Virus record (IMG/VR): IMGVR_UViG_2563366825_000018
Strand: one strand, 5' to 3'
DNA: 39,003 bases
Origin: a virus
Lineage: Duplodnaviria; Heunggongvirae; Uroviricota; Caudoviricetes
Part shown: piece by piece, positions 1 to 38,716 of the stretch
How the letters are laid out: each line of letters begins with the position of its first letter
How positions within the stretch are numbered: position 1 is the first letter of the stretch
The notes under the pieces: generated by a model
Database searches by the model: none
Seen by the model: the letters and a program-made list of their open reading frames with translations, nothing else
What the model was told of the DNA's origin: nothing
Position numbers and translations under genes: made by a program

Positions 1-1053
1 TTACGGGGTAATGCCAACCGCTGCCGCCACTTTGTCGCCACTTGGCAGCGTTGCCAGAGGATTGAAACGGAGCGCCGTTTCTAGATGATCCGGTGCCAGA
101 TGTGCGTAACGCATAGTCATTTTTATATCGTGGTGTCCGAGAATTTTTTGTAAGGCCAGAATGTTTCCACCCGACATCATGAAGTGCGCCGCAAACGTAT
201 GGCGCAGAACGTGTGTGAGTTGACCGCGAGGGAGCACGATAGACGTTTTTTCCATCACGGATAAAAATTGAAAATAGCAGTCTGTGAAGAAATTGAACCC
301 ATCAAGCGCCATGATCTCTTCGTAAAGCTCTTTACTGATAGGGATGCTTCTGTTTTTCTTCCCCTTCGTTCTGACAAAGGTAATTCGGTATTTGGTCACC
401 TGTGAGCGGGTAAGATTTACGGCTTCACGCCAGCGTGCGCCTGTGCTTAAGCATATCTTAACTACCAGTGCCAGAATTGGGTCCTGACGTTTGCAATCAG
501 CCAGCAATTCAACAATCTGCTCATGGGTAAGCCATGCCATCTCTTTTTCTGCGATGGTGAATTTTCGCATGTTCTCCAGTGGGTTCGGATACGACCATTC
601 GCCCAGACGGGATAGTTCGCTAAAAACACTACTTAGATAGCTTTGCTCCAGGTTAATGGTGACCGGGCTTGCTCCTTTCTTCCATTTCTCGCTGAAGTAG
701 ATCTCGCCTGTCAGGCGTTTATCTCGATAGTGGGCAAACATTTTAGAGGTGAGATCGGTTGCAAGAGGATTGCCCAGAGCGTCAACCATCAACAGCAATT
801 TGTCATAGACATGCTGCCCAGCTGTCAGAGATTTACCATGTAGTTTGAACCATAGCTCAACCACGTCTTTCAGTGTTCGACGATCCACTGATTCACCCAG
901 CCAGGGCTTTGCTTCGGTTTCTTCCATCGTGTGGCGCTCAAAAGCCAGTGCTTCGCCTTTGGTAGCGAATTGTTTACGCACACGACGCCCACTTCGTCCG
1001 GCGGGGTAACATTCGCAAAGCCATTTCCCTGTGGTTAGTTTTCGTACTGCCAT
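1..1053 (-). CDS. int: tyrosine integrase, P2/186 family
   Basis: 350 aa; N-terminus MAVRKLTTGKWLCECYPAGRSGRRVRKQFATKGEALAFE resembles P2-family Int; C-terminal HxxR...Y catalytic region (LRHTFAAH, MRYAHL). Confidence 0.93.
   Translation of the reverse strand: MAVRKLTTGKWLCECYPAGRSGRRVRKQFATKGEALAFERHTMEETEAKPWLGESVDRRTLKDVVELWFKLHGKSLTAGQHVYDKLLLMVDALGNPLATDLTSKMFAHYRDKRLTGEIYFSEKWKKGASPVTINLEQSYLSSVFSELSRLGEWSYPNPLENMRKFTIAEKEMAWLTHEQIVELLADCKRQDPILALVVKICLSTGARWREAVNLTRSQVTKYRITFVRTKGKKNRSIPISKELYEEIMALDGFNFFTDCYFQFLSVMEKTSIVLPRGQLTHVLRHTFAAHFMMSGGNILALQKILGHHDIKMTMRYAHLAPDHLETALRFNPLATLPSGDKVAAAVGITP
19..40. repeat. left att core copy (attL), inside the 3' end of int
   Basis: cgctgccgccactttgtcgcca here versus cgctgccgccattttgtcgcca at 36149-36170 (21/22 identical). 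Confidence 0.6.
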
Positions 1054-1135
1054 AAAAAGCCCTCATATCAGAGGGCTAAATTTAACTGTATATGTAACCA
1101 GTAATCAATGTGTGATTACTATGAAACATACATTG

Positions 1136-2812
1136 CTAAGCAACATGTAGTTCATCGTTGGCGGAAGTGGCTGCTTTGCGCTCCTGCTCAATAGCTAGAG
1201 ACTCTCTATATTCTTTCGCCTCTGCAAACATTGTCCAGTGGGCGTTGATGTTCATGTCTTCAATAACTGATTTGATTTCTTTTAAATTTACGTTAAAAAA
1301 CTCTTTTCGTGAGCTAATTTTATTGACCTGCTTTTCGTTGAAAACTTTATGCAGATGGTTTTCTAATGATGGTGCATCATCACTATAAATCATCGCATGA
1401 ACATCGAACGAAAAAGGAACACTAGCATCTCCGAGTTCACGAACACGATCAAGTGGTTCAAGGCGGCGTGTCATTCCAATTTTATATACATCTTCGCCAA
1501 ATGAACCAATATTACTAATGATATAGACGTGGCCTGATCTGGTTTGTTGAGCCATAGAAATAGCTCGTTGATTTTTAGCTTCAGCTTCTTCATATTTTAA
1601 CTGTAGTTCAGCTATTTTTTGCTCTAAAGCTAAGCGTTGTTCTTCATTTGCAAGCATAAGTTCTTTCGTTGCTTTATTTATAGCTTGCTGAATAGCTTTT
1701 TCTTCTTTTTCAGCTTCTTTTATCGCTTTTTCATATTCTCTACGAGCTCTTTCCTCTTCACGAAGCTGTTCTTTAATCCTTCTTTGCTCTTCTTTTTCTT
1801 CGAGCATAATTTCATTAACTGCTACACCCCATTTTAGCTCGTTGAGTCTTGCCTGAAGATAGATGTCACTTATTTTTGCGGACCTAAAGGCAGAGCCATT
1901 GTAATTTACTAGTTGAAATGCATCTTTTATTTCTTGGGAAAGTTTTCCAAAATTGTTGTGTTTGACTTTTGATAAAATACTGTCAACTCTTCCATTGAAG
2001 GCATCCAAAACAAAGTTTATGGCAGTATTACGCCTGTTTTGCTCAACATAATCACACGAAGCAGCTTTATTAGTTTTTATTAATGATTTGGTTAACTCTC
2101 TGGCTTTTTGTAATTCCTTGCCTGCATCTGTAAATTCATAATTTTCTGCCAGTTCATCAAGTACACTACGGTTAGGGATGATCCATTCATCACCATAACC
2201 TTCAATTTTATTTTTCATTGATTTTGCAACTGCTTCATATTTTTCTGCAAACTCTTTAGCTTCATATGCTGAACCAGCAATCTCCTTTGCTCTTTCTTCT
2301 GCATCAGAAATAATTTTTACTGCATTGTCATTAGCATTTGAGATTAGCTCATTTGCTTTATTATTAGCATTATCAAGACGTTCTTTGGCTTTCAGGCGTG
2401 CATCGCGAGCGTCTTTGGTGATTGCTATAGCTTCGCTATTAGCGTTGCTTATTGTCATCTGAGCTTGATAATTTGCTTCGTTTACTGTTTTAGCCGCCTT
2501 AATTTGGGCTTCATCTATTTTTTGCTTGGCTATTGAGTCCGCATTTTTTATCTTATTCTCTGCATCCATTACTGCGCTGTGCAATTCTTCGTATTGCCAC
2601 AATGGTGCTGCTCGCCCTTCAAGCTCTGATAATTCTCGTACGGTCTGTGCTAGTTTTTCTTGATTTTCAATCAGTTGGTTAGAAAGGGCTATGTTGTTAG
2701 CTGTCAGGTTATCTATAGCCGCTTTGTGTTTTTTACTTTGTTTAAATAATATTACAGCTAGAACAGGGGCGAGAAATGCTAATAAGAGTATAACGATGGC
2801 AAATGAATTCAT
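1136..2812 (-). CDS. membrane-anchored coiled-coil protein with DUF4041-like region and C-terminal T5orf172 (GIY-YIG-like) domain; accessory gene
   Basis: 558 aa; N-terminal TM helix, about 150 aa of Ala/Lys/Glu-rich coiled coil, C-terminal GHVYIISNIGSFGEDVYKIGMTRRLEPLDRVRELG motif; AGGA-type RBS 7 nt before the ATG; sits 20 nt downstream of cI on the same strand; AT-rich. Confidence 0.75.
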   Translation of the reverse strand: MNSFAIVILLLAFLAPVLAVILFKQSKKHKAAIDNLTANNIALSNQLIENQEKLAQTVRELSELEGRAAPLWQYEELHSAVMDAENKIKNADSIAKQKIDEAQIKAAKTVNEANYQAQMTISNANSEAIAITKDARDARLKAKERLDNANNKANELISNANDNAVKIISDAEERAKEIAGSAYEAKEFAEKYEAVAKSMKNKIEGYGDEWIIPNRSVLDELAENYEFTDAGKELQKARELTKSLIKTNKAASCDYVEQNRRNTAINFVLDAFNGRVDSILSKVKHNNFGKLSQEIKDAFQLVNYNGSAFRSAKISDIYLQARLNELKWGVAVNEIMLEEKEEQRRIKEQLREEERARREYEKAIKEAEKEEKAIQQAINKATKELMLANEEQRLALEQKIAELQLKYEEAEAKNQRAISMAQQTRSGHVYIISNIGSFGEDVYKIGMTRRLEPLDRVRELGDASVPFSFDVHAMIYSDDAPSLENHLHKVFNEKQVNKISSRKEFFNVNLKEIKSVIEDMNINAHWTMFAEAKEYRESLAIEQERKAATSANDELHVA

Positions 2813-2832
2813 TTTAAAATCCTTTTACTATA

Positions 2833-3429
2833 TTAATTCGAGACTATTGTACTTCTTATACAAGCAACCACTTCAATATCAGAAAATGCACATTCAAAGC
2901 TATTCTCTGCTGTTGTAATTTTAATCATTCCTTTAGGAAGCCTTGTGATTTTTCGAATGGAATAGGTTCCGTCGATATTGATTAACCAGTTTCCATCAAG
3001 TACTTCAGAAAATTTTTGATCACAAATGTATGTGACGAGTCCATCCTGAACAACAATTGGTGATGAAAGGTTTGCAGGAAGAAATGATGAATCGAAGACA
3101 TATGAACCGTCTTCAATCATTTTGCCTGCGGCAAGGCGAAACTTAACAAGCTCTTCTGTAGCTGCTGTCAGCGAGCTTTGCTTAAGGCCTTGTCCGGTAG
3201 TTAACCATTTGAGGGAGGTTCCTGTTTCAAGAGCACATTGGATTATCCAGTCAGCAGGAAATGTATCCCGCAAATACCTGTTCGCTAGTGTGCTTTTTGA
3301 TACTTCCAAGTGATCAGCTAAAGCCTGTCGTGTCGTAAAGCCATAGGCTTCGACTAATCGCTCAATCGCAGCCTTACCACCTTTATTGGGATTTATTTTG
3401 ATCTCACTTGGGTACTTTGATGTTGACAT
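2833..3429 (-). CDS. cI: immunity repressor CI, phage 186 type
   Basis: 198 aa; ERLVEAYGFTTRQALADHLEVSKSTLANRYLRD...CALETGTSLKWLTTGQG matches my recollection of 186 CI (HTH N-domain plus C-domain). Confidence 0.88.
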   Translation of the reverse strand: MSTSKYPSEIKINPNKGGKAAIERLVEAYGFTTRQALADHLEVSKSTLANRYLRDTFPADWIIQCALETGTSLKWLTTGQGLKQSSLTAATEELVKFRLAAGKMIEDGSYVFDSSFLPANLSSPIVVQDGLVTYICDQKFSEVLDGNWLINIDGTYSIRKITRLPKGMIKITTAENSFECAFSDIEVVACIRSTIVSN

Positions 3430-3524
3430 ATCTCTTTTGCGATCCTAGTATCAGTTTTGTACCCAATTGGGTACTTGTCACGATTACTACAGGCTCACCA
3501 CAAGCCAATAGGAGATGTTGCATC
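3430..3524. promoter_or_regulatory. lysis-lysogeny switch region between cI and apl (expected pR/pL and operators)
   Basis: Position only, between divergent cI and apl; promoters and operators not mapped individually. Confidence 0.45.
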
Positions 3525-3746
3525 ATGACCCCTAACATTTCAATAACTCTGAATACGCCACACGTCACAATCGAGCGTTATAGCGAACTTACTGGTCTTT
3601 CAATCGACACAATCAACGATATGTTGGCGGATGGTCGCATTCCTCGGCATCGTCTTCGTAAAGACAAGAAAAGAGAAAAGGTAATGATCAACCTTGCTGC
3701 TCTTACCGTTGATGCACTTACTGATTGCAATGTTGTATTCAACTAG
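3525..3746 (+). CDS. apl: Apl/Cox-like excisionase and transcriptional regulator
   Basis: Internal ATG of track ORF 3408-3746 preceded by GGAG; 73 aa small HTH protein at the 186 apl position. Confidence 0.7.
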
Positions 3747-3778
3747 TTCCATTTTGGGATACATCAGAGGTGTCGACC

Positions 3779-4288
3779 ATGTTTGATTACCAAGTTTCCA
3801 AACATCCACATTTTGATGAAGCCTGTCGTGCATTCGCACTGCGCCACAATCTGGTGCAACTGGCAGAACGTGCGGGCATGAATGTGCAGATTCTGCGGAA
3901 CAAGCTGAACCCAGCTCAACCTCATTTATTAACCGCACCAGAAATCTGGCTGCTTACCGATCTGACTGAAGATTCAACGTTGGTAGATGGTTTTCTGGCA
4001 CAGATTCATTGTCTGCCATGTGTACCGATTAATGAGGTAGCAAAAGAGAAACTGCCGCATTACGTCATGAGCGCAACTGCAGAGATCGGGCGTGTTGCAG
4101 CAGGTGCGGTATCTGGTGATGTAAAAACTAGTGCCGGTCGTCGTGATGCTATCAGCAGCATTAACTCTGTAACACGACTGATGGCGCTGGCTGCTGTTTC
4201 ATTGCAAGCCCGTTTACAGGCTAATCCTGCGATGGCGAGTGCAGTTGATACCATGACTGGCCTTGGTGCTTCATTCGGTTTGCTGTGA
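3779..4288 (+). CDS. cII: CII-like lysogeny establishment regulator (186 cII type)
   Basis: [45 protein letters not shown]... closely resembles 186 CII; RBS AGAGG upstream; start is the internal ATG of track ORF 3725-4288. Confidence 0.88.
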
Positions 4289-5352: not shown

Positions 5353-5579
5353 TGGCTGATGCAATGGATCTCGTACAGCAGCGCGTTGAAGAAGAACGCC
5401 AGCGCCATATCCGTGCAGCCCGTGCCAAATCACCGGGCGTGTCACGCGTACTTTGCATTGAATGTGAAGCGCCAATTCCGCCAGCACGACGCCGCGCCAT
5501 TCCGGGAGTGCAGCTTTGCATTACCTGTCAGGAAATCGCAGAACTGAAAGGCAAACATTACAACGGAGGTGCTGTATGA
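5352..5579 (+). CDS. TraR/DksA-family C4 zinc-finger protein
   Basis: 75 aa; CxxC...CxxC (CIECEAP...CITCQ); start overlaps previous stop; common in P2-like early operons. Confidence 0.8.
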   Translation: MADAMDLVQQRVEEERQRHIRAARAKSPGVSRVLCIECEAPIPPARRRAIPGVQLCITCQEIAELKGKHYNGGAV

Positions 5580-6433
5580 GCACTATCCTGAAATGGGCGG
5601 GAAATAAAACCGCCATTATGCCAGAACTGAAAAAATACCTTCCTGCTGGCCCGCGACTGGTTGAACCTTTCGCGGGTTCCTGTGCTGTGATGATGGAAAC
5701 GGATTATCCCAGCTATCTGGTTGCGGATATTAATCCTGATTTAATCAACCTCTATAAAAAGGTTGCCGCTGATTGTGAATCGTTTATATCTCGCGCCAGA
5801 GTTTTATTTGAGATCGCAAACAGGGAGGTGGCTTATTACAACATAAGGCAGGAGTTTAACTGCTCAACTGAAATTACTGATTTCATGAAAGCGGTATATT
5901 TCCTGTATCTCAATCGTCACGGTTACCGTGGTTTATGTCGCTATAACAAGAGCGGGCATTTCAACATTCCCTACGGTAATTATAAAAATCCGTATTTCCC
6001 TGAAAAAGAACTTCGCACATTTGCAGAAAAAGCCCAGCGAGCAACGTTTATCTGCGCCAGCTTTGATGAAACGCTGGCGATGTTGAAGGCGGGAGATGTG
6101 GTGTATTGCGATCCGCCATATGACGGTACGTTTTCCGGCTATCACACTGATGGTTTCACTGAAGATGACCAGTATCATCTGGCATCCGTTCTTGAACATC
6201 GGTCATCAGAAGGACATCCGGTCATTGTTTCTAACAGTGACACATCCCTGATCCGTTCGCTGTATCGCAATTTTACTCACCACTATATCAAGGTAAAACG
6301 CAGCATCGGTGTGGCAGCTGGCGAGGGTAAATCAGCAACAGAAATCATTGCTGTTTCCGGGCCGCGCTGCTGGATGGGATTTGATTATTCGCGTGGCGTG
6401 GATAGTTCTGCCGTGTACGGAGTACGTGCATGA
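5576..6433 (+). CDS. dam: DNA adenine methyltransferase (Dam-like)
   Basis: [11 protein letters not shown]..., EPFAGSCAV (AdoMet motif), DPPY motif, [15 protein letters not shown] all parallel E. coli Dam; RBS GGAGG; start is the internal ATG of track ORF 5516-6433. Confidence 0.9.
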
Positions 6434-8844
6434 GTCATGCCGATATGAACAACTGCTGCGGCTTTAACGAGGCTGCCGCAGCATTCTCATGGAACAGCCC
6501 GAAAAAGGCCATTAACCCTTATCTGGACCCGGCGGAAGTTGCGCCGGTTTCTACGCTTTCAAACCTGATCACTCTGTACGCTGCCGATAACGAGCAGGAA
6601 CAGTTGCGCCGCGAGGCACTGAGTGATCAGGTCTGGGAGCGTTATTTCTTTAATGAATCACGTGATCCTGTCCAGCGCGAAATGGAGCAGGATAAGCTCA
6701 TTAGCCGGGCAAAGCTGGCGCATGAGCAGCAGCGTTTTAATTCAGACATGGTCATTCTGGCGGACGTCAACGCCCAGCCTTCCCATATCAGCAAGCCGCT
6801 GATGCAACGTATTGAATACTTCAGCAGCCTGGGCAGGCCAAAGGCTTATTCCCGCTATTTACGTGAGACGATTAAGCCATGTCTGGAACGACTGGAGCAT
6901 GTACGCGACAGTCAGCTATCTGCATCTTTTCGCTTTATGGCAAGCCATGAAGGGCTGGACGGCCTGCTGATCCTGCCTGAAATGAGTCAGGATCAGGTGA
7001 AACGCCTGTCCACCCTGGTAGCTGCGCATATGAGTATGTGCCTTGATGCAGCTTGTGGTGATTTGTATGCCACCGATGACGTTAAGCCAGAAGAAATCCG
7101 CAAGACATGGGAAAAGGTGGCAGCGGAAACCCTGCGTCTGGATGTCATCCCACCTGCGTTTGAGCAACTCCGTCGGAAAAGAAACCGCCGTAAACCCGTG
7201 CCCTATGAACTCATTCCGGGTTCGCTGGCACGTATGTTGTGCGCCGACTGGTGGTATCGGAAATTATGGAAGATGCGTTGCGAATGGCGGGAAGAGCAGT
7301 TGCGCGCTGTTTGCCTGGTCAGCAAAAAAGCATCTCCTTATGTCAGCTATGAAGCCGTGATGCATAAACGTGAGCAGCGCCGTAAGTCGCTGGAGTTTTT
7401 CCGTTCTCATGAACTGGTGAACGAAGACGGCGACACGCTGGACATGGAGGATGTGGTAAACGCCAGCAGCAGCAACCCTGCGCATCGCCGCAATGAGATG
7501 ATGGCCTGTGTTAAAGGTCTGGAGCTTATCGCGGAAATGCGCGGTGACTGCGCCGTTTTCTACACTATCACCTGTCCGTCGCGTTTCCATTCCACGCTAA
7601 ATAACGGCAGACCAAACCCGACCTGGACAAACGCGACGGTAAGACAAAGCAGCGATTATCTGGTCGGCATGTTTGCTGCATTTCGTAAGGCGATGCACAA
7701 AGCCGGGTTGCGCTGGTATGGCGTGCGGGTGGCTGAGCCGCATCATGATGGCACAGTTCACTGGCACCTGTTGTGTTTCATGCGCAAAAAAGACCGCCGT
7801 GCCATCACTGCATTACTGCGTAAGTTTGCCATCCGTGAAGACCGCGAGGAGCTGGGCAATAACACTGGGCCGCGCTTTAAGTCTGAGTTGATTAACCCGC
7901 GCAAAGGAACGCCGACAAGCTACATCGCGAAATATATCAGTAAGAACATTGACGGTCGTGGTCTGGCTGGCGAGATCAGCAAGGAAACGGGTAAATCTCT
8001 GCGTGATAACGCTGAATACGTGAATGCCTGGGCGTCTCTGCATCGTGTTCAGCAATTCCGCTTCTTTGGTATTCCGGGGCGTCAGGCTTACCGTGAACTT
8101 CGCTTGCTGGCTGGTCAGGCGGCAAGGCAACAGGGTGACAAAAAAGCAGGTGCGCCGGTACTGGATAACCCGCGTCTTGATGCCATTCTGGCTGCTGCTG
8201 ATGCTGGTTGTTTTGCCACCTACATCATGAAGCAGGGCGGCGTACTGGTTCCCCGTAAATATCACCTCATCAGAACCGCTTATGAAATCAACGAAGAGCC
8301 GACCGCCTATGGCGATCACGGCATTCGTATTTATGGCATCTGGTCACCCATTGCAGAGGGCAAGATCTGCACTCATGCAGTGAAGTGGAAAATGGTTCGT
8401 AAAGCCGTTGACGTTCAGGAGGCGGCAGCCGACCAGGGCGCTTGCGCCCCTTGGACTCGTGGCAATAACTGTCCCCTTGCTGAAAATTTGTACCAACAAG
8501 GGAAAGACAAATCAGCTGATGGAGATACCAGAACGGATATCACCCGCATGGATGACAAGGAGTTGCACGATTACCTGCACAGTATGAGCAAAAAAGAGCG
8601 CCGGGAACTGGCAGCAAGGTTACGCCTGGTGAAACCGAAACGGCGTAAAGACTATAAACAGCGAATTACAGACCATCAGCGACTGCAGCTCGTGTATGAA
8701 CTGAAGTCCAGGGGATTTGATGGCAGCGAGAAAGAGGTCGATTTACTGCTTCGCGGCGGCAGTATTCCGTCAGGAGCAGGCCTGCGTATCTTCTATCGGA
8801 ACCAGCGTTTGCAGGAAGATGATAAGTGGCGAAACCTGTATTAA
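6430..8844 (+). CDS. A: replication initiation protein A (rolling-circle endonuclease, P2 gpA family)
   Basis: 804 aa; [10 protein letters not shown] (HuH metal motif) and YIAKYISKN tyrosine motif; start overlaps the dam stop. Confidence 0.93.
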
Positions 8845-8996: not shown

Positions 8997-9185
8997 ATGC
9001 AGGACTATTTTTTGGAGTCTTTGAAGCTCCAGCGCATTGATTTTTTTCTTAAGCTTGTAGCGGCTAGTGAGTGTAGTGATGAAGAGAAGGGGCTCGCCCT
9101 GCAGTGGGTTTCTGAACTGACAGATGAACTCATGGCAAAAATCAGAACCCACGAATACAACCGCTCAATGGATGTCATCAGCTGA
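8997..9185 (+). CDS. small protein, possible N-terminal antirepressor (Tum-like) part
   Basis: 62 aa; strong RBS AGGAGG 4 nt upstream; downstream of LexA box. Confidence 0.6.
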   Translation: MQDYFLESLKLQRIDFFLKLVAASECSDEEKGLALQWVSELTDELMAKIRTHEYNRSMDVIS

Positions 9186-9195
9186 GGTGACTTTT

Positions 9196-9429
9196 ATGCG
9201 CATTGAAATAATGATCGATAAAGAGCAGAAGATTAGCCAGTCTACCCTGGACGCCCTTGAATCCGAGCTTTACCGCAATCTGCGCCCCCTGTATCCCAAA
9301 ATGGTAATTCGTATCCGTAAAGGTAGCTCTAACGGTGTGGAACTAACCGGATTGCAACTGGACGAAGAAAGAAAACAAGTGATGAAAATTATGCAGAAGG
9401 TGTGGGAAGACGACAGCTGGCTGCATTAA
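9196..9429 (+). CDS. DinI-family protein (Tum C-terminal-domain-like)
   Basis: MRIEIMIDKEQKISQSTLDALESELYRNLRPLYP...VWEDDSWLH parallels E. coli DinI; RBS GAGGTG; start is the internal ATG of track ORF 9124-9429. Confidence 0.8.
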   Translation: MRIEIMIDKEQKISQSTLDALESELYRNLRPLYPKMVIRIRKGSSNGVELTGLQLDEERKQVMKIMQKVWEDDSWLH

Positions 9430-9686: not shown

Positions 9687-10346
9687 TTATGATTTCATTT
9701 TTTCGAATTTATTTTTTTGCAAAACAATATCTGTAGCTTCAATGGATTTTTTAAGTGAATCTAAAAGACGTTGACGTCTCTTAATTTTAGAGAAAGAAAC
9801 CCTCATAGCAGCCTCTTGTTTGGGCTTGATGTCCACCAGTACATAATATGGTTTTCTGGCTCCGCGCTTAATGTTGTTACGCTTAAAACCTTTTCCTCTA
9901 ATCGAAGCATTGGAATCAGCGATTTGTACAGGTAAAAACTCAAAACCACGTGTCGTCACTTTTGAACGAAATCTTTTAAATATTCTTGGTTCATGCTGTG
10001 CTCTCTTTGGTGTAGTCGAAAATAAAAAATGTTTCACGACAGTGGATTTTATCTCAGGATATTTTTCGAGATATTTTGAATTCAAGAGTGAGATGAATTT
10101 TTCAACTGGACTTATGTCAAGGTAAGAGCCGAACTTACTCTCAAAATACTTATCAAAGCTTTGGTTTTTATTATCATTAACAAACTTTGAAATATCAATT
10201 AGAAGTTCTTTCACGCCATTCTGACCAACTTCAGAAAGATATAAATCAATAATCTTTCCAAGATCATCTGAATCAAGTTCGCATGCGGTATCTTGATTGA
10301 AGTAGGACCGTATGAAATTATCTAGTTTAGTATATTCTTTTGACAT
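9687..10346 (-). CDS. hypothetical protein, acidic N-domain and very basic C-terminal half; second gene of two-gene cargo operon
   Basis: 219 aa; AT-rich; start 3 nt after upstream gene stop; C-terminal KRNNIKRGARKPYY, KIKRRQR stretches suggest nucleic acid binding. Confidence 0.7.
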   Translation of the reverse strand: MSKEYTKLDNFIRSYFNQDTACELDSDDLGKIIDLYLSEVGQNGVKELLIDISKFVNDNKNQSFDKYFESKFGSYLDISPVEKFISLLNSKYLEKYPEIKSTVVKHFLFSTTPKRAQHEPRIFKRFRSKVTTRGFEFLPVQIADSNASIRGKGFKRNNIKRGARKPYYVLVDIKPKQEAAMRVSFSKIKRRQRLLDSLKKSIEATDIVLQKNKFEKMKS

Positions 10347-10349
10347 ATA

Positions 10350-10814
10350 TCACCCCTTAACAGGATATGCAGTGAGGATGAAATGAGGCATTCCGTTAAA
10401 ATTTCCAACTTTCATAACTAAATTAATTCTTTTTGCAGTTAATATATTGTTTGGATCATCACGTTCAACGTAAGTGCCTACATCCTGTTCAATGTCTAAT
10501 TCCCTTGAAAATCTAACATCTGCGCGATTGGGATCTTTATACCACTCTGTAAATTCCATAAGAAATGAATTGAACCACTCGGTAGCTGATAGTTCTGCAA
10601 CTGATAAGTTTGTAAATGTTGAAGATACACGGAGTTTAGGAAATCGACCTATCAGGTAATTGGCATCCTTGCCAACATGTCTTCTAATTGTGTGTCCACC
10701 AGGTCCAGAATCCGAAGCTGCTTCATGAACTTTCAATTTGACGGGAGAGTATCCTGAGGAGTTTACTGTTGTCGATGTTGTAGCATGCTGTAGTTGTGAT
10801 GTAGAAGAAAACAT
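10350..10814 (-). CDS. hypothetical protein with GHTIRRHVGK motif; first gene of two-gene cargo operon
   Basis: Start ATG with GGAGGG RBS (internal to track ORF 10350-10865); 154 aa; no family confidently recognised. Confidence 0.65.
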   Translation of the reverse strand: MFSSTSQLQHATTSTTVNSSGYSPVKLKVHEAASDSGPGGHTIRRHVGKDANYLIGRFPKLRVSSTFTNLSVAELSATEWFNSFLMEFTEWYKDPNRADVRFSRELDIEQDVGTYVERDDPNNILTAKRINLVMKVGNFNGMPHFILTAYPVKG

Positions 10815-11073
10815 GTTCACCCTCCATGTTTTAGAATTGAGGTACAGTATATCGACGCTGCACATAACTTGTTTAAATATTTAGCCCTATGGTACACAAC
10901 CATATTGCTTTTTATGCTGTAACTTCTGCTCTTCGTCCACAGCGGATTTTTATCGTTGTAAACCAGTATGTTTCGTTTTTCAAGCAGTTATCCGATAGGG
11001 ATTTTCACTTCCCTTGGCAGCGCATGACTATGCTGCATGAATCCGCATGATCGTTTGAGGATCGTTTTTGCTG

Positions 11074-13203: not shown

Positions 13204-14232
13204 TTAAAATTTATATGGTTTGAATTGTAATATATTATCTTCAAGCCATTTATTTAATTCCTGCATCCTTTTCTGTAAGGGTATTAATTCGTTCCTCACA
13301 AACACTAAACTCGCTTTTTCCACATCCCCAAACCCCCCGACATTATTTGGCATAATCCCCATCATTTGCGGTGGCACACGGTGCGCTGCCATCATGTCAT
13401 CGCGGCTGACATTTTTGATATTCAGAAACTCATCCTTCGCCGCCACTTCTGACAACGGGATAATCTGAAGCCCGTCCTTTTTACCGTTAGGCGAGTACAT
13501 AAACAGGTTACGGAAGTTACCAGGACCTTTGGCGCTTTTCATCGCATTGCGGAGGTTGTTCACATCCTCCTGGTTCTGCGCTGCATCGGTCATGTACATG
13601 ATGAAGCCTGCATGACTGCCGTTAATGTAATACTTGCGGCGGAACAGCGTGGCGGACTCGTTGAGCAGAGCTGACGGAATGGCAGAAAGATAACCGGGCA
13701 GGCCGTAGATCTCCTGGTTGATGTCCGGTTCCATCAGATGAAAAATGTTGCCTTTCGTGAACTGATACGGCTGCGTAGTCATGCCGTATTGCACAAACCA
13801 GTAGGTATTAAGGTCTAACCCGCGTCGGGTGTATTTTGCCAGTGCAGGCTCAAGGGCGATAACTTCACCGAAGCGGTTCGTGCGTTTCTCCAGGTAGGCG
13901 TTACCAAAAACCAGATAGTCCTGTACAAAACGCGAAAAAGCCTGCTGGCTGAGCAGCGGGTGAGGGATGTAGGTGCTGGTCAGAATGTTGCACTTCACTG
14001 CAATCGGTGAGCTGTGATGCACGGCGGCGCGGAAGGTTCGCGCCAGTCCGTCGAAACTCACAGGCGGCTCGTACCAACGATCCATCTGTACACATTCCAC
14101 ATAGTCCAGCAGTTCGCGGCGGTCCAGAACAGGAACGGGATCACCGAAGCTGAATGCTTCGGCTGAAGTCTGGCTTTTATGCTGGATCTGTTTCGTCGAC
14201 GCAGCGCGGTTCTTCTTACTCTTTCCCATCAA
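13204..14232 (-). CDS. Q: capsid portal protein (gpQ)
   Basis: 342 aa, P2 Q-like; leftward Q-P operon. Confidence 0.9.
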   Translation of the reverse strand: MMGKSKKNRAASTKQIQHKSQTSAEAFSFGDPVPVLDRRELLDYVECVQMDRWYEPPVSFDGLARTFRAAVHHSSPIAVKCNILTSTYIPHPLLSQQAFSRFVQDYLVFGNAYLEKRTNRFGEVIALEPALAKYTRRGLDLNTYWFVQYGMTTQPYQFTKGNIFHLMEPDINQEIYGLPGYLSAIPSALLNESATLFRRKYYINGSHAGFIMYMTDAAQNQEDVNNLRNAMKSAKGPGNFRNLFMYSPNGKKDGLQIIPLSEVAAKDEFLNIKNVSRDDMMAAHRVPPQMMGIMPNNVGGFGDVEKASLVFVRNELIPLQKRMQELNKWLEDNILQFKPYKF

Positions 14233-21108: not shown

Positions 21109-21502
21109 AGCGGTGCCTTATGTCCGCAATAACCCGGACAAACTGCATCTGTTTGTGGATAACGGTTCGCTGGTTGCCACGGGGGCCAGCTCCATGTCGT
21201 GGGAGTACCGTTACACCCTGAACGCGGTGATTGAGGATTTCAGCGGCGACCAGAATCTGCTGATGGCCCCGGTTTTGCTGTGGCTGAGGGATAACCAGCC
21301 CGATGCCATCAATAACCCGGCGTTACGGGAAAAACTATTCACCTTTGAGGTGGATATTCTGCGCAACGATGTCTGTGATATCAGCCTGAACCTGCAACTG
21401 ACGGAGCGTGTGCTGGTCAGCACTGACGGCAGTGTGTCGAGCGTTGAAGCTATAGCGGAACCTGATGAACCTGAAGAAATGTGGACGGTGAAACGTGGCT
21501 GA
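21071..21502 (+). CDS. R: tail completion protein R
   Basis: GTG start with AGGAG RBS within track ORF 21050-21502; P2 R-like. Confidence 0.8.
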   Translation: MNKPQSLRHALNKAVPYVRNNPDKLHLFVDNGSLVATGASSMSWEYRYTLNAVIEDFSGDQNLLMAPVLLWLRDNQPDAINNPALREKLFTFEVDILRNDVCDISLNLQLTERVLVSTDGSVSSVEAIAEPDEPEEMWTVKRG

Positions 21503-21944
21503 ACTGCAGAAAGTGGACGACTGGCTGAGTGCCTTGCTGGCGAATCTGGAACCAGCCGCCAGAAGCCGCATGATGCGCCAACTGGCGCAGGAACTTCGCC
21601 GGACACAGCAGCAGAATATCAGGATGCAGCGCAACCCTGACAGCAGCAGCTATGAACCGCGACGGGTAACAGCACGCAGTAAAAAAGGCCGTATCAAACG
21701 TCAGATGTTTGCAAAGCTGCGCACCACAAAATACCTGAAAACTGCCGCCAGCACCGACTCTGCCAGCGTGCAGTTTGAAGGCAAGGTGCAGCGCATTGCC
21801 CGCGTTCACCATTACGGCCTGCGAGATCGCGTCAGTCGTAAGGGACCGGAGGTGCGTTATGCAGAGCGGCAGTTGTTAGGTTATAACGATAAAATTTTGT
21901 CATTATCGCAAGACGTATTATTACGTGCTTTGGTTGATAGCTAA
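21495..21944 (+). CDS. S: tail completion protein S
   Basis: 149 aa; P2 S-like. Confidence 0.85.
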   Translation: MAELQKVDDWLSALLANLEPAARSRMMRQLAQELRRTQQQNIRMQRNPDSSSYEPRRVTARSKKGRIKRQMFAKLRTTKYLKTAASTDSASVQFEGKVQRIARVHHYGLRDRVSRKGPEVRYAERQLLGYNDKILSLSQDVLLRALVDS

Positions 21945-21949
21945 GCTAA

Positions 21950-22876
21950 TCAAAACAATCTCAATAAATTATGATCAATCGTAAGCAAGTTGGAGATAAC
22001 AAGTTTGCTATTATCAATATTGAATTTTTCTAATATTGCTGCTACAGCACTGGGGTAAGGTTGTGAAGCATATGGAGAAATGTATATTTTTTCGATTAGC
22101 TTTACAGGATCTGTTTTTATTCTTATCCCCTTGGGAGTATAGTTTTCGATGTCGCTATTAATAATTTTTGGTGTTATGGATAAACGTACTTCATTTTCAT
22201 GTGAAAAAGCTTTTCGTTTTAAAAAAGGAACCATTCTTCCGTTCACGACGCAATCTTCAGATGTTAGTTTTTCATCGAAATAATCAATGTATTTTACTTC
22301 ACTAATAGAGATAATCTCTTCAGATTGAAGTGAATCTATCAAGCGTGATATTGATGTTTGAATTGCTATTCCTTTGTTAGCATCTGAATACAAACGCCAC
22401 ATTCCTTCTGACTCATGTTCATTTTGATGCCAACAATTCACTGTGACGGAGTTTAAAATCTTAAAATAGATAGATTCTATTTTTGGTAATTGTGTATCCA
22501 TCATTGTTTGCAACTTGGTGATTTCTGTTTCGGCTTTTTCATTAGAGATTCTGCCTAATAGTTCGTTTTCCCTGATACGCTCTACGGTATCATTGAAATA
22601 TGATTGTATATCATTAAATTTACTTTTGACGATGCTTGCCCATGCATTTAAGGCAACCTTAGGTAATAACCCCTCATATGGATCGCTATTGCTGTAAGAA
22701 CTAAGCGGAGAAAAATATAGCTCTTCTCTGGATAATATATCGATGAATTTATCAAGAGACATATAGCGCCACAGTTTTGTTTCAGGTTTTAAATTTGGAC
22801 TAATTTGGAATTTATTCATTGTTTTTTTATCAGCATTGTATAGTGAGTGATACAAACCGCAATATTTATACTTCAT
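21950..22876 (-). CDS. DUF2971-family protein, accessory gene inserted antisense between S and V
   Basis: LWRYMSLDKFIDILSREELYFSP, CWHQNEHESEGMWRLYSDANKGIAIQ and KRKAFSHENEVRL fit DUF2971 signatures; AT-rich; start at ATG 22876 with GGGGTG RBS (alternative ATG at 22819). Confidence 0.75.
   Translation of the reverse strand: MKYKYCGLYHSLYNADKKTMNKFQISPNLKPETKLWRYMSLDKFIDILSREELYFSPLSSYSNSDPYEGLLPKVALNAWASIVKSKFNDIQSYFNDTVERIRENELLGRISNEKAETEITKLQTMMDTQLPKIESIYFKILNSVTVNCWHQNEHESEGMWRLYSDANKGIAIQTSISRLIDSLQSEEIISISEVKYIDYFDEKLTSEDCVVNGRMVPFLKRKAFSHENEVRLSITPKIINSDIENYTPKGIRIKTDPVKLIEKIYISPYASQPYPSAVAAILEKFNIDNSKLVISNLLTIDHNLLRLF
22837..22854. promoter_or_regulatory. late promoter dyad TGT-N12-ACA upstream of V
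   Basis: TGTatagtgagtgatACA; overlaps the 5' end of the antisense DUF2971 ORF if that ORF starts at 22876. Confidence 0.5.
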
Positions 22877-22901
22877 AATCACCCCATGTCAATCTATAGG
22901 C

Positions 22902-23480
22902 ATGAACTCACAACTCACAGAAATCATGCGCCTTATCACCAATCTGATCCGCACTGGTGTAGTCACCGAAGTGGACCGGGAGAACTGGCTTTGCCGTGTG
23001 AAAACGGGCGAGCTTGAAACCAACTGGATCAGCTGGCTGACGCTGCGTGCCGGGCATGCCCGCACATGGTGGCGACCATCGGAAGGTGAGCAGGTGGTGC
23101 TGCTGAGTCTGGGCGGAAATCTGGAAACAGCCTTTGCGCTGCCCGCCATCTATTCGAATCAGTTCGCACCACCGTCGGCGTCGGCGGACGCCTGTGTGAC
23201 AGAACATCCTGATGGCGGCTGGTTTGAATACGAACCCGCCACCGGGCGCTGGTATGTCAGGGGCATCAAATCCATGGTCATTGAGGCCGACGACAATATC
23301 ACCCTGAAAACCAGTGAATTTGTGCTTGAGGCTGATCGCACACGTATTAACAGCGAAGTGGTGATCAATGGTGGCGTTACCCAGGGCGGCGGTGCGATGA
23401 GTTCTAACGGGATCGTGGTTGATGCGCATCAGCATACTGGCGTTCAGAAAGGTGGCGACACCACCGGAGGCCTGGTATGA
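22902..23480 (+). CDS. V: baseplate assembly/spike protein V
   Basis: 192 aa; P2 V-like. Confidence 0.9.
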   Translation: MNSQLTEIMRLITNLIRTGVVTEVDRENWLCRVKTGELETNWISWLTLRAGHARTWWRPSEGEQVVLLSLGGNLETAFALPAIYSNQFAPPSASADACVTEHPDGGWFEYEPATGRWYVRGIKSMVIEADDNITLKTSEFVLEADRTRINSEVVINGGVTQGGGAMSSNGIVVDAHQHTGVQKGGDTTGGLV

Positions 23481-36383: not shown

Positions 36384-38069
36384 TTATCCTAATCCTGGCC
36401 ATACCATGACGATGATTGTCCCTGCCAGCGTCAGCAGGACGTTGGCGATTGCATAGGTGCCCGCATAGCCCAGCGCCGGGATGTTACTGCGAGCTGTATC
36501 ACTGATGATCTCCATTGCCGGCGCGCAGGTACGTGCGCCCATCATTGCGCCGAACAACAGCGCGCGGTTCATTCGCAATACATAAGCACCGAACAAGAAA
36601 CAGATAACCACGGGCACCAGACTGACAATCAATCCGGCAATCAACATCTGACCGCCAATCGCGCCCAGGCCGTTATTAATACCGCTACCGGCGCTCAGAC
36701 CAACGCCTGCCATAAACACCATCAAGCCGAACTCTTTCACCATGCTTAATGCACCCTGCGGAATGTAACCGAAGGTCGGGTGGTTAGCACGCATAAAGCC
36801 CAGCATAATTCCGGCGAATAACAACCCGGCAGCGTTCCCCATGCCGAAACTGAATGTGCTGAACTGGAAGGTGATCATCCCGATCATCAGCCCAATAACA
36901 AAGAAGGCGCAGAATGCCAGCAGGTCAGTGACCTGGCTGTGAATCGAGATAAAGCCGATGCGATCGGCGATGGTTTTTACGCGGCGGGCATCGCCGCTGA
37001 CTTGTAAAACGTCACCTTTGTTAAGCACGACGTTGTCATCTATCGGCATCTCAATCTGGCTACGAATGACGCGGTTAAGGAAGCAACCGTGATCGGTCAA
37101 CTTCAGTTGTGCGAGACGTTTACCTACAGCGTTATGGTTTTTAACGACCACTTCTTCAGTGACGATACGCATGTCGAGAAGGTCACGATCGAAAACTTCT
37201 TTACCGTTACGGAAGCTGGGATCGAGTCGGGCATGGGCGTCGGGATAGCCTACCAACGCTATTTCATCGCCCATTTGTAGCACGGCATCACCGTCTGGAT
37301 TTGCCAGAATCCCGTTACGTCGAATACGTTCAATGTAGCAGCCGGTTTGTCGATAAATACCCAGTTCACGCAGATTTTTGCCGTCGGTCCAGGCCACCAG
37401 TTCCGGGCCGACGCGATAGGCGCGGATCACCGGTAAATAAACCTTACGGTTGGCATCAGTGTCCAGGCCACGTTCGCGGGCGATTTGCTGGGCGCTGGTC
37501 TGTAAGTCCTGATGCTGCAATTTCGGCAAGTAACGCGCACCAACAATCAAACTCACCAGACCGATTAAATAGGTTAAGGCATACCCGAGGCTCAGATTAT
37601 CCAGTGCCAGTGAGAGCTGCCTGCTTTCCATGCCGGAATGACGCAGTGTATCGCCAGCACCGACCAGAACCGGTGTCGACGTCATAGAGCCTGCTAACAT
37701 ACCGGCCGTCAGGCCAATATCCCAGCCAAACAGCTTACCTAACCCTAAGGCGATCACCAGCGCACTGCCAACCATCACCAGTGCTAACATTAGGTAATTT
37801 TTCCCATCGCGAAAAAAAATGGAAAAAAAGTTCGGTCCGGCTTCGACCCCGACGCAGAAAATAAACAGCATAAAGCCAAGATTAAGCGCATCGGTGTTAA
37901 TGCTGAAATGTTGTTGGCCTAATAACAGCGATACGACTAAAACGCCAATGGAATTACCCAGTTGGATCGAACCAAGTCGTAACTTTCCGAGACATAGCCC
38001 AAGCGCGAGGACCACAAATAATAACAGAATGTAATTCCCATTTAACAATTCGGCGACGTTTATATTCAC
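36384..38069 (-). CDS. ybjL: putative AAE-family transporter YbjL (host chromosome)
   Basis: 561-aa polytopic membrane protein; N-terminus [33 protein letters not shown] recognised as E. coli YbjL. Confidence 0.85.
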
Positions 38070-38338
38070 GGAGGCTAACTTCTTGTTTACTAGTAAGCTG
38101 TTGAAAGAAATGGTAATTTACGATAATGTTTTTTACCAGAATTCAGGGCGCAGATTCATTCAGCGCACCTAAACGATAGTAAAGTAACAATATATTTTAC
38201 TAGTGTAATCACATTAGGTATCAACGGCTATATGAATTGCGTTGGCCTATATTAGCATGGAATGCGAAGCGGCTTTATCTTACTGAACGCCACACTGGCG
38301 AAAAATGTGTTCGATAGACGCAGTGTCAGGAGGAACGA

Positions 38339-38716
38339 GTGAAACATAAACAACGTTGGGCGGGGGCAATCTGCTGTTTTGTCCTCTTCATTGTGGTGTG
38401 CCTTTTTCTGGCGACGCACATGAAAGGCGCTTTTCGGGCTGCCGGGCATCCTGAAATCGGCTTGCTATTTTTCATTCTTCCTGGAGCAGTCGCCAGCTTC
38501 TTTTCACAGCGTAGAGAAGTCCTGAAACCTCTGTTTGGCGCAATGCTGGCGGCACCCTGTTCGATGCTCATTATGCGGCTGTTTTTTTCACCGACGCGCT
38601 CATTCTGGCAAGAGCTGGCATGGTTACTAAGCGCGGTGTTCTGGTGTGCGCTGGGGGCACTGTGTTTCTTATTTATCAGTAGTTTGTTTAAACCACAGCA
38701 CAGAAAAAATCAGTAA
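38339..38716 (+). CDS. ybjM: inner membrane protein YbjM (host)
   Basis: 125 aa, four predicted TM helices; matches my recollection of E. coli YbjM and its K-12 position between ybjL and grxA. Confidence 0.75.
   Translation: MKHKQRWAGAICCFVLFIVVCLFLATHMKGAFRAAGHPEIGLLFFILPGAVASFFSQRREVLKPLFGAMLAAPCSMLIMRLFFSPTRSFWQELAWLLSAVFWCALGALCFLFISSLFKPQHRKNQ

Follow-up and report, generated by a model that had tools for sequence, protein, structure and literature searches.

The closest described relative of the gene examined here is PD-lambda-1, which was found in a functional selection from ECOR26 (RCP76574.1, 500 amino acids) (Vassallo et al. 2022, PMC9519451). Homologs of PD-lambda-1 protect E. coli (PMC9519451) and S. 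thermophilus (10.1101/2024.10.22.618286). The system was subsequently renamed SNIPE and its mechanism worked out (Saxton et al., Nature 2026, PMC13190303). SNIPE is a membrane-anchored GIY-YIG nuclease that cuts siphovirus DNA during, not after, injection (PMC13190303). The E414A substitution abolishes both defense and toxicity, deletion of DUF4041 leads to loss of defense, and a protein lacking the transmembrane helix attacks the chromosome, the nuclease being non-specific and, when released from its membrane tether, toxic (PMC13190303). Its range covers siphoviruses and not myoviruses or podoviruses, and a prophage genome already inside the cell is not acted upon (PMC13190303). Defense is direct, in that cells survive at high multiplicity of infection, unlike those carrying the abortive control PD-lambda-3 (PMC13190303). 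Evidence points to the N-terminal region and DUF4041 as the parts that contact ManYZ and the tape measure protein; both are diversified among the members of the family, about two thirds of which possess an N-terminal membrane anchor (PMC13190303). A pair of S. thermophilus PD-lambda-1 proteins that are 98.5% identical differ completely in activity, one of them being inactive (10.1101/2024.10.22.618286), and the activity of any single allele is therefore not guaranteed.

A predicted nuclease gene between the repressor and integrase genes of a 186-like prophage

The window analyzed here, a stretch of 39,003 nucleotides of tailed-phage DNA (IMG/VR record IMGVR_UViG_2563366825_000018), contains an open reading frame for a 558-residue protein between the genes for a cI repressor and an integrase (Table 1). 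The initial annotation had placed this gene on the same strand as its neighbors and 20 nucleotides behind cI, and the open reading frame coordinates agree: the cI stop codon TAA (2835-2833) and the ATG (2812-2810) are 20 nucleotides apart, the AAGGA Shine-Dalgarno sequence lies 7 nucleotides before the ATG, and 82 nucleotides separate the stop codon from the start of int. The gene is AT-rich, with a GC content of 37% (27% at third codon positions) against 50.5% for the remaining window; cI is also low in GC (40%), and int is at 49%. Two alleles of the gene found in E. coli differ by 95 nucleotides but by only 17 amino acids, and this pN/pS of 0.06 shows that the open reading frame did not arise by chance and is under purifying selection.

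Table 1. Features of the cI-int region, in window coordinates
Feature	Coordinates	Strand	Basis or remarks
Tyrosine integrase int, 350 aa	1..1053	-	Pfam Int_N and Phage_integrase
Conserved int leader, 82 nt	1054..1135	-	Promoter-like TTGAYY-17-TTAAAT, then hairpin and U-run
SNIPE/PD-lambda-1-family gene	1136..2812	-	ATG open reading frame, 558 aa; stop codon 1136-1138
GIY-YIG nuclease domain, residues 426-528	1229..1537	-	GHVY430, YKIG446, R449/R450, catalytic E484, N497
Long helical linker, residues 323-425, E/K/R/A-rich	1538..1846	-	AF2 helices 316-387, 390-425
DUF4041 (Pfam PF13250) domain, residues about 217-322	1847..2164	-	Compact helix/strand domain 217-315 in AF2 model
N-terminal long-helix region, residues 24-216	2165..2743	-	AF2 helices 3-64, 72-203
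N-terminal TM helix, residues 4-23, FAIVILLLAFLAPVLAVILF	2744..2803	-	Kyte-Doolittle; helix in AF2 model
cI-to-gene spacer, 20 nt	2813..2832	-	Shine-Dalgarno AAGGA at 2824-2820
186-type cI repressor, 198 aa	2833..3429	-	Pfam Phage_CI_repr and Phage_CI_C; upstream gene of presumed operon
pR-like rightward promoter TTGACA-17-TAGTAT	3423..3451	+	Promoter scan, 10/12 matches

Family membership and domain architecture

The protein matches the PADLOC PD-Lambda-1 model PDLC03976 with E=5.9e-119 and 396 bits (residues 106-550 against positions 36-481 of the 491-position profile) and a second PD-Lambda-1 profile, PDLC03977, with E=1.5e-115. A BLASTP comparison with the ECOR26 SNIPE protein RCP76574.1, whose reference sequence is the 'PD-lambda-1' of phage PhiR26_1 (L001:4071-5573), gave 49% identity over 293 amino acids (265-555; E=3e-76). 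In addition, a newer RefSeq name for the identical gene is 'SNIPE associated domain-containing protein', and the Pfam family PF13250 (DUF4041) now carries the name SNIPE. No partner gene accompanies it in the E. coli, Klebsiella and Salmonella loci, where its neighbors are cI and int, as for a single-gene system. On this sequence evidence we assign the protein, securely, to the SNIPE (PD-lambda-1) family as a divergent member. The association with prophages and defense that had been proposed for this combination of domains thus agrees with both the PADLOC match and the prophage loci. The accompanying statement that it has no established mechanism is outdated, the combination being that of PD-lambda-1 (PMC9519451), whose mechanism has been published under the name SNIPE (PMC13190303).

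Pfam searches placed DUF4041 at residues 267-322 (46.6 bits, cutoff 27), T5orf172 at 427-520 (62.5 bits) and MUG113 at 443-520 (70.8 bits), all above their cutoffs, which confirms the two domains that the initial annotation had named. The sole hydrophobic segment is formed by residues 4-23, where the Kyte-Doolittle value for a 19-residue window reaches 3.16, no other window exceeding 1.6. The sequence KQSKKHK follows directly after this helix, and by the positive-inside rule the bulk of the protein is therefore predicted to be cytoplasmic. AF2 models, which are of moderate confidence (pLDDT about 75 (75.8) and pTM 0.36 for the full length), show a C-terminal beta-beta-alpha-beta-alpha domain after the transmembrane helix, the long helices, DUF4041 and the helical linker. 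This domain carries the hallmarks of the GIY-YIG superfamily, namely GIY and YIG motifs on a beta-hairpin, followed by the arginine, the catalytic glutamate and the asparagine. Residue E484, with which E414 of SNIPE aligns, is invariant in 135 homologs, as are all of the other catalytic residues. Pfam, hydropathy and AF2 thus concur on the proposed order of an N-terminal transmembrane segment, long helices, DUF4041 and a GIY-YIG-like T5orf172 domain. A Foldseek search with the full-length AF2 model returned no significant match, and a sequence search of the PDB returned no relative at E<=1. Sequence identity to the GIY-YIG proteins of solved structure SLX1, I-TevI, the UvrC N-terminal domain and PD-T4-3 is only 12-14%, and these proteins possess neither a membrane anchor nor DUF4041.

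Divergence from the characterized SNIPE

The order of transmembrane helix, long helix, DUF4041, helical linker and GIY-YIG domain, encoded by one gene, is common to the 558-residue protein and ECOR26 SNIPE, and both genes are prophage-borne in E. coli. The two proteins differ in length (558 against 500 amino acids), the N-terminal region being about 70 residues longer here. Similarity is distributed unevenly along the protein: identity amounts to 70/105 (67%) in the nuclease domain and 51/110 in the linker, 21/95 (about 22%) in DUF4041, 5/20 in the transmembrane helix and 15/111 (about 14%) in the N-terminal helices, so that the N-terminal long-helix region is the part least like the characterized SNIPE. 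Residues 1-151 also hold 14 of the 17 amino acid differences between the two E. coli alleles. The SNIPE gain-of-function positions E223K and W257R correspond to S292 and K327. Given identities of about 14% in the N-terminal region and about 22% in DUF4041, the ManYZ association and the phage range of SNIPE are not transferable to this protein, and its phage specificity, judged from the sequence, may differ from that of the tested SNIPE.

The genetic settings differ as well. The SNIPE gene belongs to a lambdoid siphovirus prophage, in which ren and a rha-like gene flank it; it lies on the strand opposite to its neighbors and was assayed from its own promoter (PMC13190303). The gene described here follows cI, and its prophage is that of a 186-like myovirus. 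Zorya and Kiwa are likewise envelope-localized and act at the injection step (PMC13190303, discussion), but they are multi-gene systems made up of unrelated proteins, and neither was among the PADLOC matches.

Presumed expression from the lysogenic transcript

A promoter scan found no promoter-like site in the 20-nucleotide gap between cI and the gene. There is also no convincing terminator before the gene, the sole upstream match, within cI, being weak (3 G-C pairs, no clean T-run). From the short gap, the lack of promoter-like and convincing terminator-like sites and the paradigm of phage 186, we infer co-transcription with cI, so that lysogens probably express the SNIPE-like protein together with the repressor, from pL during maintenance and from pE during establishment. 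The pR-like promoter overlaps the start of cI, a position analogous to that of pR in phage 186. No convincing pL was located by consensus on the minus strand at 3520-3580, and the assignment of pL therefore rests on the analogy with phage 186.

The conserved leader of int contains a hairpin at 1077-1058, AGCCCTC-N6-GAGGGCT, followed by a U-run that reaches into the int ATG; the Shine-Dalgarno sequence of int (GAGGG) lies within the 3' arm of the hairpin. The predicted fold has an energy of -32.1 kcal/mol (z=-5.5). The leader is kept across loci with different cargo, and in PM4-5 and H1 the hairpin differs in sequence and still pairs. The transcript of cI and cargo may end or be attenuated at this hairpin, or translation of int may be masked by it. 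Because a conserved terminator-like hairpin intervenes between the SNIPE-like gene and int, a single mRNA spanning cI, the gene and int is not assured. An Rfam scan of positions 900-3800 also gave a match to RyhB on the int leader; its 28.5 bits fall below the gathering score of 55, and it is probably due to chance.

The rexAB genes of phage lambda, which exclude other phages, are co-transcribed with cI from pRM and form a two-protein abortive system that contains no nuclease. They offer a likeness in arrangement, as exclusion genes directly downstream of a repressor gene that are expressed in lysogens; they are not known to be related to the SNIPE-like protein in sequence or fold.

The cI-int interval is a variable cargo slot

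In the reference record of phage 186, cI (22433-23011) and int (21423-22433) overlap by one base within the pL/pE lysogenic operon, which bears out the earlier statement that the two genes are adjacent in this phage. In ESSI2_ev040 and RE-2010, as in 186, cI adjoins int without cargo. The SNIPE-like gene is missing from 186 and from many sister prophages that are otherwise complete in the region, and this comparison shows that it does not belong to the conserved housekeeping genes of the 186 operon. Int and the 82-nucleotide leader, almost to the stop codon of the cargo, are common to the sister prophages at the same integration site beside rcdA, and the int-side boundary of the slot, where homology with other prophage variants ends, falls at about 1131-1135.

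What occupies the slot differs among these prophages. EcPF20 carries a full-length Old homolog (PADLOC Old, 777 bits), PM4-5 a 60-residue open reading frame together with a KAP P-loop NTPase (PDC-S20), AR_452 an uncharacterized 329-residue protein, and Klebsiella phage 4LV2017 an uncharacterized 349-residue protein; strains H1 and HS have only a 63-residue open reading frame. All of these sister-prophage cargo genes lie on the cI strand, 10-43 nucleotides behind the preceding gene. The gap between cI and int accommodates variable cargo in this lineage of prophages, and two of its occupants, Old and the KAP NTPase (PDC-S20), are defense or candidate defense genes.

Among complete E. coli genomes, 164 have the cI allele of this window and 165 have the SNIPE-like gene, the two being adjacent in every locus inspected. 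In EC590 the pair is joined to a different int allele, indicating that cI and the SNIPE-like gene behave as one module. No E. coli prophage was found that has the same cI allele but lacks the gene, which would have given a clean empty site; the junctions of the slot were thus drawn by comparison with prophages that differ in both cI allele and cargo. A search for insertion scars or a target duplication flanking the gene yielded only short two-copy matches that resemble chance.

Variable slots with alternative defense genes are likewise known from the hotspots of P2-like prophages, tin/old between gpA and the portal gene, and Z/fun (Rousset et al. 2022, PMC9122126; Vassallo 2022, PMC9519451; NAR 2026, PMC13586616). 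The cI-int slot differs from the classical gpA-portal hotspot in lying within the presumed lysogenic transcription unit. In the same window, the classical hotspot is occupied by a type I-C retron and a CdiA-CT/CdiI-like pair.

Distribution

The SNIPE-like gene is present in 165 of 5,426 complete E. coli genomes at a nucleotide identity of at least 94%, with its full-length open reading frame intact, and also in Escherichia phage vB_EcoM-813R9 and Klebsiella phage KP12. Orthologs of 558 residues with about 82-85% identity occur in Klebsiella, Salmonella, Citrobacter, Enterobacter and others. The layout in Klebsiella and Salmonella is the same, with cI (198 amino acids), 20 nucleotides, the gene, 82 nucleotides and int inside 186-like prophages. 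An exhaustive HMMER search collected 1,390 clusters at 50% identity (E<=1e-30). Of the best 150 family representatives, 124 are near full length, and 103 of these have an N-terminal hydrophobic helix.

Proposed mechanism and alternative explanations

Together, these observations make it likely that the gene is a single-gene anti-phage defense of the SNIPE family that a 186-like (Peduoviridae) prophage carries as cargo within its lysogenic operon and that acts at the step of DNA injection. The suggestion of a membrane-tethered nuclease effector in the lysogenic operon is consistent with all of the evidence. By analogy with the characterized homolog, the protein would be localized to the membrane, would cleave DNA during injection, would defend directly rather than abortively and would act on siphoviruses. 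The transmembrane anchor would prevent a non-specific GIY-YIG nuclease from reaching the chromosome. Upon genome injection by a superinfecting phage, most likely a siphovirus, DUF4041 and the N-terminal region would engage both the incoming DNA and the injection machinery, in the form of the tape measure protein, an inner-membrane entry factor or both. The nuclease would then cut the phage DNA on entry, and the cell would survive. In this way a myovirus prophage could shield its host from competing phages while remaining itself unharmed; the inactivity of SNIPE on myoviruses and on resident prophage genomes fits carriage by such a prophage.

One alternative is that the protein is an abortive-infection toxin, a nuclease that is released or activated upon infection, degrades host and phage DNA and kills the cell. 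Many single-gene nuclease defenses of prophages act abortively, and the divergent N-terminal and DUF4041 regions leave room for other regulation. The SNIPE nuclease is, moreover, non-specific and toxic when off the membrane, but the characterized homolog defends directly and cells survive high multiplicities of infection, unlike with PD-lambda-3 (PMC13190303). Since the transmembrane anchor, the linker and the nuclease are all conserved in the 558-residue protein, we regard an abortive mode of action as unlikely.

Alternatively, the gene might be an inactive or specificity-less passenger, a relic of the SNIPE family that hitch-hikes with the cI immunity allele and provides no current defense. 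Hitch-hiking would also give rise to the match between the 164 genomes with the cI allele and the 165 with the gene, and one protein of the 98.5%-identical S. thermophilus pair showed no activity. Against this, pN/pS between alleles is 0.06, the open reading frame is intact in all 165 E. coli genomes and is found in Klebsiella, Salmonella, Citrobacter and Enterobacter at about 85% identity, and the catalytic residues are all invariant, which renders a passenger very unlikely.

That a free-standing GIY-YIG homing endonuclease invaded the interval between cI and int is scarcely credible, given a membrane anchor and a 400-residue helical/DUF4041 N-terminal part that are foreign to homing endonucleases, unrelated cargo (Old, KAP NTPase) in the slot of sister phages, and the failure to find flanking repeats or a target duplication. 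The GenBank/JGI names 'chromosome segregation ATPase' and 'vacuolar-type H+-ATPase subunit H', together with weak NCBIfam matches to SMC, DivIVA and V-ATPase E, would point to a structural or ATPase-type protein that serves the biology of the phage itself, a reading that is effectively refuted by the lack of any ATPase or P-loop domain in Pfam and by the absence of the gene from 186 and many sister prophages, which argues against a core function. The matches in question (SMC, DivIVA/Wag31, V-ATPase E) score 15-22 bits against cutoffs of 260-729 and are composition artifacts of the coiled coil, arising from low-complexity helical sequence.

Implications

Conceptually, little of the anti-phage defense proposed here is new: the family was described in 2022 and its mechanism in 2026, and PADLOC and the current PGAP already label the gene. 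What the locus provides is a common natural variant of SNIPE with divergent targeting regions, useful for mapping SNIPE specificity, and an example of a defense nuclease encoded just downstream of the repressor in a myovirus prophage. The gap between cI and int as a site where defense cargo is swapped (Old, KAP NTPase, SNIPE-like) is relevant to surveys of prophage immunity. We put at somewhat short of an even chance the broader interpretation in which the protein is a SNIPE variant with a different targeting module, made up of the longer N-terminal helices and the divergent DUF4041, and, at the same time, the cI-int gap is a defense slot wired to the lysogenic promoter. If this holds, the variant might recognize another inner-membrane entry factor and another set of tape measure proteins, possibly of phages outside the known range of SNIPE, and the defense would be on together with immunity and off at induction, moving as one module with the immunity allele.

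Cargo between cI and int in related prophages

The interval between the cI repressor and the integrase gene (the cI-int slot), which in the window holds the SNIPE-like gene, is occupied by other genes in related prophages, among them a full-length Old-family nuclease of the P2 type and a KAP P-loop NTPase. Proteins of 329 aa (E. coli AR_452) and 349 aa (Klebsiella phage 4LV2017) gave no PADLOC match and no significant Pfam match; because of their position in this slot, we consider their genes candidate novel defence genes.

The 82-nt int leader that separates the cargo from int is kept among prophages whose cargo differs. It contains a promoter-like site and a hairpin that, with its U-run, overlaps the int Shine-Dalgarno sequence and start codon. 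The leader fold has a z of -5.5, and two variants change the sequence of the hairpin with retention of pairing. The leader could thus act as a terminator or attenuator of the cI-cargo transcript, or as a translational mask for int. A scan against Rfam placed the RyhB sRNA on this leader (1051-1119, minus strand) at 28.5 bits (E=0.018), below the gathering score of 55, a match that probably reflects only the shape of a stem-loop and terminator.

Features of the window and of the cI-int slot in related prophages (coordinates are those of the window unless a locus is named)
Feature	Coordinates	Strand	Match or position
int leader, 82 nt	1054-1135	-	promoter-like site TTGAYY-17-TTAAAT/AAAAAT
Orphan Dam-type DNA adenine methyltransferase	5516-6433	+	PADLOC oMTase, E=1.6e-110
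gpA	6430-8844		left bound of hotspot
DinI-like gene	9124-9429	+	gpA-portal hotspot
CdiI_2 immunity domain gene	9687-10346	-	adjoins CdiA-CT gene
CdiA-CT RNase A-like toxin domain gene	10350-10865	-	gpA-portal hotspot
Reverse transcriptase, 646 aa	11222-13162	+	PADLOC RT-Toprim retron type I-C, E=6e-217
Portal	13204-14232		right bound of hotspot
ybjL-like Asp-Al_Ex/TrkA_C transporter	36384-38069	-	host gene
ybjM	38339-38716	+	host gene
P2 Old-family ATPase-TOPRIM nuclease, full-length	L009:5127-6896 (E. coli EcPF20)		cI-int slot
KAP P-loop NTPase	L007:1233-2564 (E. coli PM4-5)		PADLOC PDC-S20; cI-int slot
329-aa protein, unannotated	L006:1240-2229 (E. coli AR_452)		cI-int slot
349-aa protein, unannotated	L003:1851-2900 (Klebsiella phage 4LV2017)		cI-int slot

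The gpA-portal hotspot and the integration site

The reverse transcriptase gene lies between gpA and portal, the classical P2 defence hotspot, and, as a type I-C retron match, gives this prophage a second defence system. In the same interval, the CdiA-CT and CdiI_2 genes, neither of which matched a PADLOC model, may form a toxin-immunity pair. The methyltransferase gene is located close upstream of gpA.

Host DNA makes up the right end of the window (36384-38716), and rcdA, ybjJ, ybjI, ybjH and mdfA follow int in related records. The ybjL-like gene at the right end, together with rcdA beyond int, places the prophage between rcdA and ybjL; attR should lie near 36 kb.

Apparent exchange of the cI-cargo module

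At L013:884-4292, E. coli EC590 carries the same cI and SNIPE-like module as the window beside a different integrase allele, which is 1032 nt long and is followed by a 270-nt ORF, an arrangement shared with E. coli HS. This pairing indicates that recombination moved the immunity-plus-defence module from one prophage backbone to another.
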